A stretch of 20,000 nt of DNA from an uncultured Ignavibacteriales bacterium (GTDB lineage: Bacteria; Zixibacteria; MSB-5A5; GN15; FEB-12), in NCBI GenBank assembly GCA_964464605.1, contig CAYXJN010000001.1:428915-448914 (forward strand), given 5' to 3'. Shown here in pieces: positions 1-20,000 of this stretch. Made by a program: the position numbers. Numbering within the stretch: position 1 is the stretch's first letter; every line of letters begins with the position of its first letter.

Positions 1-3000
1 CACTATGTTTACTCTTGATTTCTTAGTCAGCGATAACCGCACGTTCGAATGCATGTACGCTCCGGTTCGCTTTGTCTGGTTCGATTGTGGTGACAACACC
101 ATTTCTAACCCGCTTGGTGATACCCTGTACATTTCACGCAACGTGTTTGACTTCGACCTCATTGGTAACATTGCCGACTCTACCGGCACCTATCCGACCT
201 GGAATGGAGCTCAATTATGCGACAATCCGAATCCGGACAAACCGGATCCAGTTCGCTTTATTGACTTCTATAACGGCGGTGTTGACATCGTTTGCGCCGA
301 CTCAATCGACGCCCGCGGTGACATCAACTTGAACGAAATTGCCAACGAAATCGCTGACGCGGTTCTCTACAGCAACTACTTCGTTTATGGTCTTGGTGTA
401 TTCAATGTAAATCTTCAGGGTCAGATCGCTGCCTCTGATGTGAACGCCGACGGTATTGCGCTTTCCGTTGCCGACTTGGTCTACTTGATCCGTGTCGTTA
501 TCGGCGATGCCAATCCGTTCCCGAAGGTCGCCCCGGCTTCTATCGAAGCTACCTACACGGTTGCCGCTGGTGAAATCTCTATTGATGCCACCGTGGCTGC
601 GGCCGCTATCGTTGTTGAAGGCAATGTCACCCCGACCTTGCTGGCTAACAATATGAATATGATCTCCAACTTCGATGGTACTAACACCCGCATCCTGGTT
701 TACACCAATGTGGATCGTAATTCCATCGAAACCTTCTCCGGTAACTTCCTCGCCGTCAACGGTAACGTGATCTCAGCTGAGTTCGCGACTGCCGAAGGTG
801 GCGTTGTGAACGCCGCGGGTAAACTGGTTGCTAACAAGTTCGTCTTGAACCAGAACTACCCGAATCCGTTCAACCCGAAGACCCGCATCTCCTTCAATCT
901 CCCGAGCGCTTCTCAGTACTCGCTGACCATCTACAACATCACCGGTCAGAAAGTCAAAGAAGTCTCAGGTACTGGTGTTGCTGGTATCAATGAACTCGAT
1001 TGGGATGCTACGAATGAAGCTTCCGGTATCTACTTCTACAAGTTGACCGCCGGTACCTTCTCTGAAACCAAGAAGATGGTATTCCTGAAGTAATTCAGGT
1101 TTTCCTCTGATTCCCCCGGAAAGGTTAACCCCTTTCCGGGGTTTTTTTTATCGAAAGGAGTAAAGAGAAATCACTAGATAACAATTGAAAGTCAGTATAA
1201 AAGGATACCACTGTACTATGCGTGACCGATTCCAGCACATCTTTTGTGCATCCAAATCTGAATCAGGTCATTTTTTATGGCCGCCAATTCGACTCGACAA
1301 AAATCCGAAAAACACCTATCTTCCATGCGCAGAGTTGGAACGGGTACAACTGAAAGGAATGTTGTATGAAACGTAGTGCAATTTTCTCATTCATTACTTT
1401 TCTCATGGTCGCAAATATCAGCGTGGGGCAAAACGCGGTGTCAATAGATTCGATTTCTGGTTTTATGGCACCGAACAAGATACCCGTCGGGCAGCCGGTT
1501 CGATTTTCATTCCGTTACACCGGGAGTGCGCCATCCGGGGAGCTTTTGTTTGGTTTCACTACCGCCTTTGATTTGTATTCTCCGGGCGGAGCTACGTGGA
1601 CGGTCCCGACGTTCACTGTGGCAAACAATCCGGCGGCAATGGGACTGCGGAATGAATGGGGGCCAATAAATTTTTTCATTAACTCATATAATGCCAACGG
1701 TAGCGGTCATGATACGCTTTCACTATTTGCCAGCGACTATACCGATCCGTGGGAAGGCATAACGTCCTTTGATGACCAATTGATGGATCTAACGGTTCCT
1801 GCATTTCCGCAAGCTGATACAGGTAAGGCAATTTGTATTGATTCATGCTCCTGGTTTTCATCGGGAATGTTTCATTGGTCATTTGCTACTGTTAAAGAAG
1901 GTGAGGGACAACTTTTTGAACGTCCTGCAACGTATGGCACTGGTCCTTATGCCGCGAATTACACCGCCGGAATGGGATATTGTTTTACACTAGCCACTCC
2001 GCCGTACATCTGTGGCGACATTAACAATAACGGGACTGTAACCGTTGCAGATATGGTGTATTTGATTCAATATTTCTTTAATTCCGGACCGGCCATTCCT
2101 GCGCCTACCGCGCGAGCGAATGTGAACTGTCTGGGTGATCCAAACCGACCGACGATTGCTGATAATACTTACTTAGTGAGCTATTTGTTTAACAACGGCC
2201 CTGTGCCGTGCGCGAATTGCCCGTAATACTTTTCTTTGCTGCATAAAAAGGAGTTGTTTTTCTGCGTATGAGCCGTCGCATATTCGCAGTGGCCTTTCTT
2301 GTGTTTATTTTTTGTTCTGCGGTTCATGCAGAGAATGCAATTTCATTTTGGGGTTCTTCCAGTTCAGAAACCAATACGATTGAAGTTGGTAAATGGGTTG
2401 CGTTTACATTCCAAACGCGTACTGAGTTTGATACCTGCGACGGATGGGAGAGTTTTTCCAATACCTTTGATTTGTATTCACCAGATAATGCTATCTGGGC
2501 TGCTGCCACGCAGGAACACCTCTTTGGTTCGGGCTACCTGTTTGAACTGGCTCGCGATTGGGGACGTAATAATTTAGGAATGAATACCTATAACTGGAAT
2601 GGCAACGACCACGATACACTTGAAGTGTTCGGGCGTGACGGTATTGCTCCCTTCGGGCAAATAGCTTCGTTTACCGGATATCTTCATATCACCATAGACA
2701 GCTTCTCAAGCTCTGATGTCGGAAAAACATTTTGCATCGATTCCTGTACGACCATTCAGCGCAAGAAAACATGGATATACGGAGCATACAAAAGTGATCG
2801 GTGCTATTCCCCCGATTTTGGCGGCGGGCCGCATGCATATGCATATACGCCGGGCCAGGGATATTGTTTTACGTTGGTTCCTCCGCAAACCTGGGCACCG
2901 ACAATCATCACCTGTCCCTCCATTCCAATACAATTGTATTTTGATTCGACACAACATTTCACTGTTGAAGCAACGAAGGGTCACTGCGATTCGATGTTTT

Positions 3001-18000: not shown

Positions 18001-20000
18001 TTCCTATATGATTAACTTTATTTATAACGCCGGCCCCCGCCCCCCGCAGTAATTGCGCTGATCATTGAAAGACAATGGCTTAGGCTTATCCAGGCCGCCT
18101 GTAAACAGGCGGCCTGTTCTATTTTCTGACCCACAGTTCTCCTAACCCCTTACCAGTAAAGTTCTTGACAGTTTTTTAAGTACCAGCTATCATTAGGTTG
18201 ATTACTGAGTCCCGCCACATTACAAAAGAAGTCTACATGATCACGCCAAATTTTCGGTGTGTGGTTGTCTCACTTTCCTTGGTGAGCAGCTTTTTTTGCT
18301 GATTGTATGGCTCATAATCGATATGCGATTATGAAAACAGTGTTTTGGCGAATACTGAATTTTGAAATGATCGATCGCCGCATGTGAATGCGGCACCAAA
18401 TCTCAATCTACCGCATTGCGGTCAGAAAGGAGTGTGATTCACAGAGTAACGAAGAGTAATCCGTTACCAGTTTCCCGTGATATGCGGATTGGACGTGATG
18501 TCACGCTGGCGCTGGTAGAACTTTCCACTGTATTGTAAAAATGGTAAAAAATGCGACTTATTCATCTTGAGAGAGGGATAAGTTGGGAACTAAGAACTAT
18601 GTGAAAGGAGCATCGGAGAATGAAAAAGTTTTCCGTATGGAGTATCCTCGCACTGCTGACCGTGATGCTGGCGGCTTCTGCTGTGTTCGCTGTCCGTTCG
18701 CAAAAAGAACTGGACGCGCTGAATCGCAGAAAGATTGATCCGCGCATCTACAAAGGAACGATGTATGCGTTTCCGGATGAATCAGCAAATAGCGCCACGT
18801 CCCGCGGACGTGAAGTGCGCTCATCCGTTTCCTCATCTTTCCAATCGGCCAGCCCGGGTAAAGTTGTAGGAAACACCTGGTATGATTATCAGGCCAACGG
18901 TTCAATGAAGCGCCAGGCTCAGACCGGTAAACACGGCACAGTCCCGAACGATACGCTGCTTGTGCACTTTGCCTGGATGGACCAGGACGGTGCGTTTGCC
19001 GGCGGTAACGGTCGTGGTTACGGCTATCGCGCCTGGAACGCCAAGACCGGTAGCTTTACGACCGGTTCGAAGGTCCACATTCAGGATCCTCCCGGTGATT
19101 TCCGCGGCGGTTATGTTGTTCAGGATGTAACTCCGGACAACTTGGCTGTTGTGGGTGGTCACGAAGTGAGCGGAGCCGGATTTGTTCAGATTTATTATGA
19201 CTTTTCACCGGGTGCGGCATTTTTCAGCACCAAGCTGTCGCCTATCCCAACTTCCGTGGCCGATGACGGTACGCCGACTGAAAATCAATTCATCTGGCCG
19301 GCCGTAGCGTATCAGGTTGTCGGTAGCGATACGATTACGCACGTTTTATCCGGTGAAAGCGCCCCTGCTGCCGGTGATCCGCAGACGCTCAAATATTTCC
19401 GTAAAGATGGTCGCGATAACGTCGGTACGTGGGTGTTAGGAAAACAGGTTGATACAACTTTCTTGATTTCCTGGGAAGTTGCTGCTTCCCGCACCACGCA
19501 GAAAGTCGCTCTTGTCTGGACCGGAAACCTTCCGAATACCGGCGACTGTGATACCTGCTCAAGCAACAACGGACAGCAGTTCGTTCAGTGGGATAATGAC
19601 ATCTATTGCCAGATTTCCACTAACGGCGGCTCCACCTGGCAGCCCCGTATTAACATAACGAAGAACGTGGACGGCGTAGCCGGGCATCGTGTGTATGCCG
19701 ATGCTTCCGCTCTCGTTAGTACTGCCAACAATGTGGTTGTTGCCTTCAACGCCCGTGTCTGGCCGGCCGATGCGAACACCGGCGGCGATGCCGGCTTGCT
19801 CCGCGGCCGTATTTTCGTTTGGTCAGAAGCATTCCCGGCGAACGTCTATCGTACAGCCCACAATGCTGAATGGGATCAGACGACCTGTAACGGTGGTACC
19901 TTCCAGCTCAATACTGGTCACATGAACATTGCCGAATGCGAAGGTAAACTGTACATCGTGTTCGTTCAGTTCAACGACATTCCGGATGGCGTAGAAGATG

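Follow-up and report, generated by a model that had tools for sequence, protein, structure and literature searches.

Genes of the window

The window, i.e., the whole stretch of 20,000 nucleotides analysed here, holds seven genes, all of which belong to a cohesin-dockerin system. [quoted passage not shown]

ORF1, 2..1093, + strand: last 363 aa of an 877-aa secreted protein whose start lies upstream at contig position C1:427374; end of a cohesin-fold unit, dockerin-like module (about 311-496), beta-rich spacer, T9SS CTD (about 857-1081)
ORF2, 1366..2226, + strand: 286-aa secreted protein; four-Cys dockerin tail (2008-2223) ending CANCP
ORF3, 2268..5813, + strand: 1181-aa T9SS protein; two fused cohesin-fold and dockerin-like units (3180-4061 and 4383-5252), CTD (5577-5801)
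ORF4, 6269..8734, + strand: 821-aa T9SS protein; cohesin 1 (6395-6745) and cohesin 2 (7451-7765) with Ig/cadherin-like repeats between them, dockerin-like module (7886-8062), CTD (8480-8719)
ORF5, 8771..11473, + strand: 900-aa T9SS protein; partial N-terminal cohesin match (8906-9037), poly-Gly linker, Big_9/cadherin-like domains, cohesin (10139-10510), dockerin-like module (10547-10732), CTD (11204-11461)
ORF6, 11495..18052, + strand: 2185-aa secreted protein with ~20 cadherin/Big_9-like repeats; Cys-free dockerin tail (17849-18046)
ORF7, 18620..19999, + strand: first 460 aa of a secreted protein running off the contig

In ORF1, the HMM of the fused unit matches residues 401-693 (E 1e-144), a stretch that ends 184 aa before the C-terminus, and residues 618-679 give a weak match to our tail HMM; its CTD reaches 45.2 bits as Por_Secre_tail (cut-off 27). 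Both units of ORF3 are recognised by the unit HMM (E 7.8e-117 and 6.1e-120), and the CTDs of ORF3 and ORF5 score 47.9 and 30.3 bits with TIGR04183 (cut-off 23). ORF2 shares its N-terminal domain of ~200 aa, which has no family, with the CTD proteins ORF1 and ORF3; its tail is clear with the tail HMM (E 2.5e-28) and stays under the Pfam Dockerin_1 cut-off (19.5 bits, cut-off 22.9). ORF6 matches the tail HMM at E 1.6e-18 and Big_9 at 73.9 bits; an assembly gap of 100 N lies inside it, at 12232-12331. ORF7 continues on contig C16, the end of C1 being the reverse complement of C16 over an exact 55-nt overlap. The part on C16 ends in a dockerin tail of the CC class defined below (E 6.9e-25), and neither part matches a Pfam family.

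Dockerin tails across the genome

For a census of the tails, ORFs of at least 60 aa were called over the whole genome, and an HMM was built from the 15 tails above the cut-off of Pfam Dockerin_1 (PF00404, which has 16 matches over its cut-off in the genome and 25 at E<=0.01). At E<=1e-3 the HMM matches 64 ORFs. We counted as a C-terminal tail any match of at least 45 aa ending no more than 12 aa from the C-terminus, and 59 of the 64 carry such a tail, a module of ~70 residues. The five others are a tail followed by 87 further residues, an N-terminal dockerin, and three weak internal matches in ORF3, ORF4 and ORF5. These internal dockerin-like modules of CTD proteins reach only E 1e-4 to 3e-7 and form a separate class, more divergent than the C-terminal tails. 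A preliminary description of this genome had listed 55 dockerin-tailed proteins, 45 with a Cys in the last four residues, 29 ending in Cys-Pro and 50 with a signal-like N-terminus; with our own HMM and ORF calls, the corresponding numbers among the 59 are 49, 29 and 48, the last obtained with a strict hydrophobic-stretch heuristic. The Cys-Pro ending is almost private to these proteins: among 2462 ORFs of at least 150 aa only 30 end in this way, and 29 of them are dockerin-tailed.

The tail profile (A1) matches 26 PDB sequences (best E 2e-9). Where a name is informative, it is that of a dockerin module or of a cellulosomal or amylosomal enzyme; two entries bear no other name than 'Serine protease'.

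The cargo that precedes the tails was classified with Pfam. Peptidases make up 14 of the 59 proteins (8 S8, 2 M14, 2 trypsin-like, 1 M43 and 1 reprolysin), and further families are FG-GAP, SBBP, beta-helix, C-lectin, PKD, lysyl oxidase, galactose-oxidase-like, PhoD, GSDH and DUF7451; besides the peptidases, the set thus comprises beta-propeller, lectin and Ig proteins, several oxidases and one phosphatase. The classes named earlier, i.e., 15 peptidases, propeller, Ig and lectin proteins, oxidases, PhoD, GSDH and DUF7451, are thus recovered, with one peptidase fewer. None of the 59 has a glycoside hydrolase family at E<=1e-4, and the window proteins contain no carbohydrate-binding module (CBM) by Pfam. 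These assignments support a cargo that is protease- and adhesin-like and not cellulolytic. The idea of a protein-degrading counterpart of the cellulosome is weakened, in that no more than 14 of the 59 are peptidases. Several cargo classes (S8+PKD, SBBP, FG-GAP and BACON_2) are found either with a CTD or with a dockerin tail.

Calcium loops and paired cysteines

A type I dockerin consists of two tandem repeats, each with a calcium loop of 12 residues, whose ligands are at positions 1, 3, 5 and 12, and a helix after it. All 59 tails show this loop-helix twice, as type-I-like dockerins whose two repeats are nearly identical. At loop position 12, Asp is found in 58 of the 59 first loops and in all 59 second loops, and at position 3 the residue is Asn in 54 of the first and 55 of the second. 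One helix consensus is common to both repeats, in likeness to dockerins with a dual binding mode. The largest class, of 30 tails, bears the cysteine pattern CC...C...C-P (CC class); 26 of these 30 tails have Asn at position 1, and a hydrophobic residue occupies position 5 of loop 1 in 10 of them and of loop 2 in 16. Because calcium ligands are altered in this way, CC tails may not act as canonical calcium-dependent dockerins.

The cysteines come in sets. Over the 59 tails, the upstream CC and the linker Cys occur together in 30, singly in 0 and 1, and are both missing in 28 (p 5e-16); 29 of the 30 tails that have both carry the terminal Cys as well. The loop-2 Cys is likewise associated with the 'PC' Cys (counts 9, 2, 0 and 48; p 4e-9; 59 tails). 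Within the module window used, the number of Cys is even in 47 of 59 modules and odd in 12. Of 20 tails taken from other families, three have no Cys before repeat 1; two of these also lack the last Cys, and the third keeps one C-terminal Cys. This covariation suggests that the terminal Cys, often in Cys-Pro, is one half of a disulfide joining the dockerin's C-terminus to a Cys immediately ahead of repeat 1, and that a second Cys pair would link other positions of the module. It also argues against the earlier proposal that the Cys-Pro tail is a new sorting signal, since covariation of the terminal with the upstream Cys is what intramodule disulfides predict. In the CC class, which has lost some of its calcium-loop ligands, disulfides that form in the periplasm may do part of the stabilising otherwise done by calcium.

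Cohesin modules and fused units

The cohesin fold is a flattened beta-sandwich (jelly-roll) of about 140 aa. Our iterated cohesin HMM converged on 17 modules in 15 proteins of the genome, close to the 15 modules in 14 proteins counted before. Five of these proteins have a T9SS CTD, nine (formerly eight) are dockerin-tailed and one is a protein of 191 aa. In the nine tailed proteins the cohesin lies immediately ahead of the protein's own tail. Seven additional, divergent cohesin-fold units were found beyond the 17 modules, and no protein of the genome has more than two cohesin-fold modules.

It had been feared that the HMM had drifted to a general beta-sandwich; the cohesin profile (A2) dispels this, as all 20 of its PDB matches are cohesins. 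Pfam Cohesin (PF00963, cut-off 24.1) is exceeded by ORF4 (51.3 bits, in two stretches) and ORF5 (44.7 bits). The AlphaFold model of ORF4 cohesin 1 (pLDDT 79.7) aligns with solved cohesins at TM 0.60-0.75. Its top PDB match is 2xdh (E 4e-9, 24% identity, TM 0.69-0.71), and the top matches are nearly all cohesins. For the unit at ORF3 residues 303-600 (pLDDT 82.4, pTM 0.73), the best PDB matches of the model are again cohesins, with a TM-score to the target of 0.74-0.76 and insertions in the sandwich. Profiles and predicted folds together support the view that the modules are real cohesins and dockerins.

Two arrangements stand out. Elsewhere in the genome, L142 and L143 (278 and 288 aa) are minimal proteins that consist of a signal peptide, one cohesin and a CTD, and frames of ~270-300 aa matching them recur among the cohesin matches of relatives. 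The second is the fused cohesin and dockerin-like unit of ~290 aa, found in 31 of 31 relatives at 3-25 copies per genome; in five CTD proteins here, its most C-terminal copy ends 184-209 aa before the protein end. Cohesin-fold modules are present in at least 10 of the 26 CTD proteins. This conserved unit in T9SS proteins, like the phylum-wide spread of the trait described below, was absent from the preliminary description.

Secretion machinery

That there are cohesin proteins with a T9SS sorting domain holds: ORF1, ORF3, ORF4, ORF5, L142 and L143 each exceed the curated cut-off of PF18962 or TIGR04183 (type A sorting domain), and N-terminal hydrophobic stretches are seen in the CTD-protein sequences. 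The whole genome has 26 CTD matches over the Pfam cut-off. None of the 59 tailed proteins is among these 26 ORFs, just as none of 55 had been among 25 before. The SprA gene is present, over cut-off at 563 bits and with its neighbours in the frame, and there are five PorV-like matches. A PorU-like C25 peptidase scores 121 bits, far under the equivalog cut-off of 420, and GldM (TIGR03517) has no match here, the control genomes being likewise silent.

On the dockerin-tailed proteins we found no recognised signal for crossing the outer membrane. A type II/IV ATPase, a platform protein, pseudopilins, a T2SSC-like protein and a secretin are also encoded together in one cluster of the genome, and each of 41 sampled genomes of the phylum has 1-3 secretins. 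Judged from its genes, this type II secretion-like cluster would be an available route for tailed cargo over the outer membrane.

Conservation in the phylum

Dockerin tails (8-144 per genome) and cohesins (3-20 per genome) occur in all 41 sampled genomes; by gene content, the trait is phylum-wide, the phylum being in all likelihood Zixibacteria. The two counts rise together (Spearman 0.56 over 41 genomes and 0.80 over nine family medians), a correlation in which kinship and genome size are confounders. Three other genera have a syntenic cluster. G012 keeps the order of a tail gene, a unit+CTD gene, a two-cohesin+CTD gene, a cohesin+CTD gene and a giant tailed protein, and G014 and G016 keep the same order as far as their contigs reach, with a 490-aa one-cohesin protein in place of the two-cohesin gene in G016. 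Within our genome, 9 of the 59 tail genes lie no more than 3 kb from a CTD gene, where 3.0 are expected (reached in 2 of 2000 random draws), and 46 of 59 lie more than 5 kb from any.

A probable docking system for surface display

We consider it probable that the window represents the core locus, kept in relatives, of a docking system made of cohesins and dockerins, by which a diderm, most likely of the Zixibacteria, displays cargo on its surface. In this scheme, the T9SS would export the cohesin carriers and fix them on the outer membrane, and the dockerin tails of the cargo would plug into the carrier cohesins, so that the cargo is held at the cell surface. The nine cargo proteins with a cohesin before their own dockerin could be adaptors that recruit a second cargo. 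The preliminary description had seen a cell-surface multi-enzyme assembly with scaffoldins. Since no carrier has more than two cohesins, the outcome would rather be the surface display of many single enzymes and adhesins. The hallmarks of a cellulosome are not those of this genome: its proteins have two cohesins at most instead of a scaffoldin with many in tandem, and no glycoside hydrolase is borne by the 59 tails, nor a cellulose-binding module by the window proteins.

The same modules can be read otherwise. The tails might be dockerin-fold modules that bind no cohesin, i.e., stabilising C-terminal caps clamped by calcium or disulfides, or binders of another ligand (for instance a substrate or a surface glycan), and T9SS proteins might have the cohesin-fold modules simply as beta-sandwich spacers. 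Dockerin- and cohesin-like modules outside cellulosomes are indeed reportedly widespread (a survey by Peer et al. in 2009 is said to have found this), with partners mostly unknown, and the loss of canonical calcium ligands in the CC class, like the missing linkage of most tail genes to cohesin genes, would fit. However, spacers hardly account for proteins made of a cohesin and a CTD only, nor for a conserved gene cluster or for cohesins and tails that occur together in 41 of 41 genomes with jointly rising counts, and a single helix consensus in both repeats over 59 unrelated cargos fits a common partner; we hold this double reading to be unlikely. Alternatively, the fused cohesin and dockerin-like units may pair with each other, within or between chains, into a T9SS lattice or stalk from which the free tails are a side branch. 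The ubiquity of the ~290-aa unit among the 31 relatives (3-25 per genome), its near-constant distance of 184-209 aa from the C-terminus in five CTD proteins, the nine cargo proteins with a cohesin directly ahead of the tail, and the pTM of 0.73, which hints at a fixed mutual arrangement in the model, all point that way. Such pairing is nevertheless compatible with docking of tailed cargo, it involves internal modules of a separate and more divergent class, and it leaves the 59 tails without explanation, which makes it improbable as the main function.

A further reading concerns the route. Proteins with a cohesin and a CTD could be trans-acting adaptors: the cargo would fold and become stapled in the periplasm, where the adaptor would pick it up and take it along through the T9SS translocon. 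The dockerin tail would in that case serve as a T9SS signal in trans, binding and sorting being one step. The tailed proteins outnumber the CTD proteins (59 vs 26) with the same cargo classes, none of them has a terminal CTD of its own, minimal cohesin+CTD proteins exist, and paired Cys imply that these proteins fold in an oxidising compartment, either prior to export or in its course. On the other hand, the secretins (1-3 in 41 of 41 genomes) and the type II secretion-like cluster here mean that an ordinary export route exists, and we know of no described case of T9SS co-transport of a bound partner. We give this adaptor role little probability, and as little to the claim that would follow from it, that across the phylum the dockerin tail replaced the covalent CTD as surface address. 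Docking at the surface stays our preferred reading.

Comparison with known systems

The T9SS side resembles that of Bacteroidota, with the same type A CTD (TIGR04183), SprA, PorV-like genes and a PorU-like peptidase. Enzymes of Bacteroidota usually bear the CTD themselves; here a dockerin takes its place in most secreted enzymes, and cohesin-fold modules are found in at least 10 of 26 CTD proteins. Among the structure and profile matches of the cohesin and tail searches are PDB 3ul4 and 4dh2, of the Clostridium thermocellum single-cohesin anchors OlpA and OlpC, which attach enzymes with type I dockerins to the cell wall. The principle is alike, one cohesin with an envelope anchor and single dockerin enzymes docked directly on the cell; there, an SLH module provides the anchor on a monoderm wall and the cargo consists of glycoside hydrolases, in contrast to a T9SS CTD on an outer membrane. 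The best structural match of ORF4 cohesin 1, 2xdh, is a non-cellulosomal cohesin of Archaeoglobus fulgidus, a non-cellulolytic organism, and its source protein also has a dockerin. Unlike here, that protein is archaeal and has few copies per genome, a T9SS and an expansion of tails both being absent.

The closest precedent is Candidatus Stygibacter (Cloacimonadota), for which a cellulosome-like complex aimed at polypeptides and polysaccharides was proposed from genomes only (Williams et al. 2021, PMC8542988). In that report, signal-peptide enzymes, including S8 and C25 peptidases, have C-terminal dockerins, and the cohesin protein has a conserved C-terminal domain for cell-surface attachment, where a T9SS review is cited. 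Its scaffoldin is one 3,755-aa protein with CBM2/CBM3 and cohesins in tandem, and the cargo includes GH18 and GH57 (PMC8542988). The general concept is already in print for this one genus. The two systems share a diderm host of the FCB group, dockerin-tailed S8 peptidases and a surface-attached cohesin protein, both being known from genomes alone. They differ in that our system has at most two cohesins per protein, no CBM in the window proteins and no glycoside hydrolase in 59 cargos, and in that it has small anchor proteins of just a cohesin and a CTD, units in which cohesin and dockerin are fused, tails probably stapled by Cys, and members in 41 of 41 genomes sampled across the phylum. One Cloacimonadota genome that we searched gave no tail match.

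Significance

To our knowledge, what is understood of cohesins and dockerins comes almost wholly from Gram-positive cellulose degraders. The bacteria of this phylum are uncultured diderms, common in sludge and sediments, and throughout the phylum their surface proteome appears to be organised by the two modules, in connection with the T9SS and with proteases and adhesin-like proteins as the load. The system raises a testable question, the passage of folded tailed cargo over the outer membrane. If binding proves true, the cohesin-dockerin principle would be a general surface-display device, and the attack of these bacteria on particulate protein would have an explanation. Dockerins that are disulfide-stapled by nature, and that possibly depend less on calcium, would then also provide surface-display tools for Gram-negative hosts.

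Dockerin-Tailed and Cohesin Proteins of the Genome

The set of dockerin-tailed and cohesin proteins noted in the preliminary description was confirmed over the whole genome by HMM searches, Pfam, and profile matches in the PDB. In the 2.82 Mb of its 18 contigs, 10,296 ORFs (60 aa or longer) were called and searched with a tail HMM built from 15 Pfam-positive tails, the module being required to lie no more than 12 aa from the C-terminus. The dockerin module (hereafter, the tail) ends 59 ORFs, 49 of which have a Cys within their last four residues, while 29 end in Cys-Pro. Cys-Pro ends are otherwise rare: of 2462 ORFs that reach 150 aa or more, only 30 have one, and 29 of these are tailed proteins. 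The iterated cohesin HMM converged after three rounds on 17 modules in 15 proteins, i.e., five proteins with a C-terminal sorting domain (CTD) of type IX secretion (T9SS), nine tailed proteins, in which the tail comes directly after the cohesin, and one 191-aa protein. The counts first reported, 55 tails (45 with the Cys, 29 with Cys-Pro) and 15 cohesin modules in 14 proteins, differ from ours within the error of gene calling.

By Pfam, the tailed proteins include 14 peptidases (8 S8, 2 M14, 2 trypsin-like, 1 M43, and 1 reprolysin); many FG-GAP, SBBP, beta-helix, lectin, and PKD proteins; and lysyl oxidase, galactose-oxidase-like, PhoD, GSDH, and DUF7451 proteins. No glycoside hydrolase was detected among the 59 at E ≤ 1e-4. 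The module is oddly placed at two loci. In L059 (G000:C4:162422-164260), which is GSDH-like, the called ORF has 87 further residues after the tail, and in L060 (G000:C8:113545-115950; 801 aa), the dockerin lies near the N-terminus (residues 62-128). The lysyl-oxidase-like L041 (G000:C3:135738-137708) combines a C-terminal dockerin tail with a Por_Secre_tail match inside the protein (31.4 bits, residues 322-374); here, the CTD-like sandwich serves as an internal domain.

Genes of the Window

Every long ORF of the window lies on the + strand.

Genes of the window
ORF1, 2-1093, + strand: final 363 of the 877 aa of a protein whose start lies upstream of the window
ORF2, 1366-2226, + strand: 286-aa dockerin-tailed protein
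ORF3, 2268-5813, + strand: 1181-aa CTD protein
ORF4, 6269-8734, + strand: 821-aa protein with cohesin and CTD
ORF5, 8771-11473, + strand: 900-aa protein with cohesin and CTD
ORF6, 11495-18052, + strand: 2185-aa protein with a 100-N gap inside
ORF7, 18620-window end, + strand: extends past the contig end

A signal-like hydrophobic N-terminal stretch is present in all six ORFs that start inside the window and, likewise, in the full ORF1 protein. With Pfam, ORF4 (51.3 bits) and ORF5 (44.7 bits) exceed the Cohesin cut-off; the T9SS sorting domain is found in ORF1, ORF3, ORF4, and ORF5; and the Dockerin_1 match of ORF2 is sub-threshold. The NCBIfam model TIGR04183 passes its cut-off in ORF3, ORF4, and ORF5. 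An N-terminal domain of ~200 aa is common to ORF1, ORF2, and ORF3 (window 1366-2000 and 2268-2900; loci L145 and L040) and matches no Pfam or NCBIfam family. Upstream of the window, ORF0 shows a similar tail along with weak matches of cohesin type. In ORF5, a linker of 13 glycines (window ~9770-9810, residues ~333-346) lies between an Ig-like region and cadherin-like domains.

The end of contig C1 (window 19945-19999) and the reverse complement of contig C16 (L037) share an exact 55-nt overlap; ORF7 therefore continues on C16, where it ends in a dockerin tail. The joined ORF7 is a ~1120-aa protein, without Pfam family in either half, whose tail is of the CC class (Cys pattern CC...C...C-P). 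In ORF6, near-identical copies of a cadherin-like repeat lie on both sides of the 100-N run (window 12232-12331), which thus probably marks a gap in the assembly where a tandem repeat collapsed; the actual number of repeats in ORF6 is uncertain.

Identity of the Modules and a Divergent Cohesin Class

It had been feared that the cohesin HMM could have drifted into generic beta-sandwiches. Two results speak against this. The profile of 16 cohesin modules gave 20 matches in the PDB, all of them cohesins (20/20), and the AlphaFold model of the first cohesin of ORF4 (pLDDT 79.7) has as best structural match the non-cellulosomal cohesin 2xdh of Archaeoglobus fulgidus (E 4e-9), followed by cellulosomal cohesins (TM 0.6-0.75). 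The profile of 57 tails matched 26 PDB sequences (best E 2e-9); where the names are informative, they denote dockerin modules or enzymes that bear a dockerin, and two entries are named simply 'Serine protease'. The latter (PDB 8x39/8x3a) are a 151-aa chain whose residues 5-65 match the tail profile (E 9e-8); they may represent a protease dockerin of solved structure and a possible comparator. A complex prediction between the first cohesin of ORF4 and the tail of ORF2, run without controls, scored 0.07 against a mark of 0.32, which counts neither for nor against binding.

ORF1 and ORF3 are matched only weakly by the cohesin HMM. Relatives of one 298-aa ORF3 stretch occur in each of the 31 related genomes (31/31), at 3-25 per genome. 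Modeled from 32 aligned sequences, this unit (pLDDT 82.4, pTM 0.73) folds as a beta-sandwich followed by three helices, and the best structural matches of the sandwich, which carries Cys-rich insertions, are cohesins (TM-score to target 0.74-0.76). The model thus predicts a second, divergent cohesin class in ORF1 and ORF3, fused to an internal dockerin-like module, which is formed by the three helices. The unit is found in five CTD proteins of this genome, with two copies in ORF3, and the copy nearest the C-terminus ends, in every case, 184-209 aa before the protein end, i.e., a spacer of ~100 aa plus the CTD. In ORF4 and ORF5, the order is the same and the cohesin is more canonical. Cohesin-fold modules are carried, in total, by at least 10 of the 26 CTD proteins.

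Cysteines and Calcium Loops of the Tails

The Cys classes of the 59 tails, assigned by HMM positions, are mutually exclusive, and the Cys count is even in 47/59 modules. The ORF2 tail has four Cys, and the ORF6 tail is free of Cys. An upstream 'CC' and a linker Cys occur together in 30 tails, singly in 0 and 1, and are both missing from 28 (p 5e-16); when both are present, the terminal Cys is present as well in 29/30. Similarly, a loop-2 Cys and the 'PC' Cys four residues before the end are both found in 9 tails, singly in 2 and 0, and neither in 48 (p 4e-9), and a Cys just before repeat 1 is accompanied by the terminal Cys in 9/11. Twenty tails of other families follow the pattern of a Cys directly before repeat 1 (C-G-D), a loop-2 Cys after D/N, and a C-terminal P-C-x-x-C-P; in the three of these 20 without the first Cys, two are also without the last one, and the third has one C-terminal Cys. 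The Cys pattern of the tails reads as a signature of intramodule disulfides, for which we infer that the Cys preceding repeat 1 would pair with the terminal Cys, and the loop-2 Cys with the 'PC' Cys. It had been proposed, alternatively, that the dockerin-Cys-Pro end is a new sorting signal. We set aside this role, and that of a lipidation site, since the terminal Cys covaries with upstream Cys and since neither a transmembrane segment nor a basic tail follows Cys-Pro.

In CC-class tails, loop position 1 is Asn in 26/30, and position 5 is hydrophobic in 10/30 (loop 1) and 16/30 (loop 2); in the other tail class, position 1 of loop 1 is Asp in 26/29. The Asn and hydrophobic residues of the CC class suggest that disulfides may partly replace calcium as stabilizer. 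Both tail repeats have a common helix consensus, ITVADLTYLVQYLFNSG, an internal symmetry of the kind typical of dual-binding-mode dockerins.

T9SS Genes, Proposed Anchoring, and Export

The genome has the T9SS protein SprA (563 bits, with neighbors present in the frame), 26 CTD matches above cut-off, and five PorV-family matches; the search for GldM was silent in this genome and in every control genome. A C25 peptidase of 787 aa, CTD-like at its end (L213, G000:C7:142227-144590), matches the PorU model (E 3e-35) far below the equivalog cut-off and is shorter than the 1095 positions of the model; it is a candidate T9SS sortase. In two cases, L142 (278 aa) and L143 (288 aa), the whole protein is made up of a signal peptide, a single cohesin, and the CTD. 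Frames of ~270-300 aa recur among the cohesin matches of relatives, and the nearest ESM Atlas clusters (273-291 aa), in which Candidatus Zixiibacteriota is the commonest phylum, have Por_Secre_tail in 94-100% and Cohesin in 11-51% of their members. Such proteins would have little plausible role but the surface presentation of a cohesin.

The terminal CTD is absent from all 59 tailed proteins. They might cross the outer membrane by type II secretion or, with a low probability, bind a cohesin and CTD carrier in the periplasm and be co-translocated with it by the T9SS. Two secretin clusters are found in the genome, one with PilM/N/O and the other with a type II/IV ATPase, a platform protein, pseudopilins, and a T2SSC-like protein. 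As secretins occur in 41/41 sampled genomes, they do not discriminate between the two routes. One type II secretion-like locus (L147, G000:C11:8000-27100) comprises an ATPase, a platform protein, two pseudopilins, a PilM/N fusion, a T2SSC-like protein, and a secretin; a dockerin-tailed gene (C11:27133-29175) lies ~10 kb downstream of the cluster, and an M6 peptidase with CTD comes next (C11:29580-31370).

The CTD set includes S8+PKD peptidases, an M6 peptidase, and SBBP, FG-GAP, and BACON_2 proteins; all these classes, M6 excepted, are also found with dockerin tails. Because of this overlap, and because tailed ORF2 has its head domain in common with the CTD proteins ORF1 and ORF3, the dockerin tail would fit as an alternative way to the same destination as the CTD.

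Distribution and Synteny

The tail profile gave 19-150 matches per genome in 31/31 relatives of the family and order, and 8-144 in 41/41 genomes from across the phylum, which all belong by placement to a single class; the cohesin profile gave 3-20 in each of these 41 (41/41). Tail and cohesin counts correlate (Spearman 0.56 over the 41 genomes and 0.80 over nine family medians), with kinship and genome size as confounders. Five named genomes were drawn for comparison from the records matched when genome contigs were searched with ORF4, a search in which nearly all of the 80 loci match only residues ~700-821, the CTD pattern being dominant. Tail matches number 68 in the Zixiibacteriota MAG, 83 in the unclassified 'bacterium C14-12', 4 in the Marinimicrobia MAG, and 0 in both the Cloacimonadota and KSB1 MAGs. 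Ribosomal protein L13 is 64% identical to that of the Zixiibacteriota MAG versus 45-53% for Cloacimonadota, KSB1, and Marinimicrobia, and we infer that the host genome belongs to Zixibacteria.

Gene order starts alike in three other genera (genomes G012, G014, and G016): a ~410-aa tailed protein; a ~870-910-aa protein with unit and CTD; a cohesin-bearing protein with a CTD-like end (~826 aa and two cohesins in G012 and G014, 490 aa and one in G016); and a ~900-aa cohesin and CTD protein. In G012, a giant tailed repeat protein and then another tailed protein follow; the contigs fetched for G014 and G016 reach only to, or just past, the ~900-aa gene. Relative to these genomes, the ORF2-ORF3 pair is an extra in the window. 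Genome-wide, 9/59 tail genes have a CTD gene at a distance of up to 3 kb versus 3.0 expected (2/2000 random draws reach 9), and 46/59 are more than 5 kb from any. Public runs with DNA like window 6269-11473 amount to 20 rows from seven studies, all of DNA or unknown kind and none of RNA; in 18 rows, the DNA is near-identical (at least half of the sampled words), and 12 rows may be the assembly source. Their labels (bioreactor, activated sludge, sludge, aquaculture, rhizosphere, and wastewater metagenomes) are a habitat lead only.

Comparison with Candidatus Stygibacter

In the literature outside subscription journals and supplements, no publication linking Zixibacteria with dockerins was found, none among the 12 matches listed of 907 linked it with cohesins or cellulosomes, and natural disulfide-stapled bacterial dockerins were absent from the 12 matches listed of 177 (titles and abstract starts). 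A cellulosome-like structure has been proposed in Candidatus Stygibacter (Cloacimonadota): according to Williams et al. 2021 (PMC8542988), dockerin-bearing GH18, GH57, S8, and C25 enzymes would dock on a scaffoldin of 3,755 aa with tandem cohesins, CBM2/CBM3, and a CTD. The present system follows the same docking principle. However, it is without large scaffoldin, without CBM (by Pfam, in the window proteins), and without glycoside hydrolase cargo; it has minimal anchors, fused cohesin-dockerin units, and putatively Cys-stapled tails; and each of the 41 genomes drawn from across the phylum has it.

The reading as a protein-degrading cellulosome fixed by the T9SS, as the preliminary description had it, is supported in part: the putative cohesin-dockerin docking tied to the T9SS is retained, and the cellulosome gives way to a probable surface display with no large scaffoldin. 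Both the binding of the tails to the cohesins and the surface localization would follow from the modules that the proteins carry. In conclusion, the system is best described as T9SS-tied cohesin-dockerin docking, by which proteases and adhesin-like proteins would be displayed at the cell surface.
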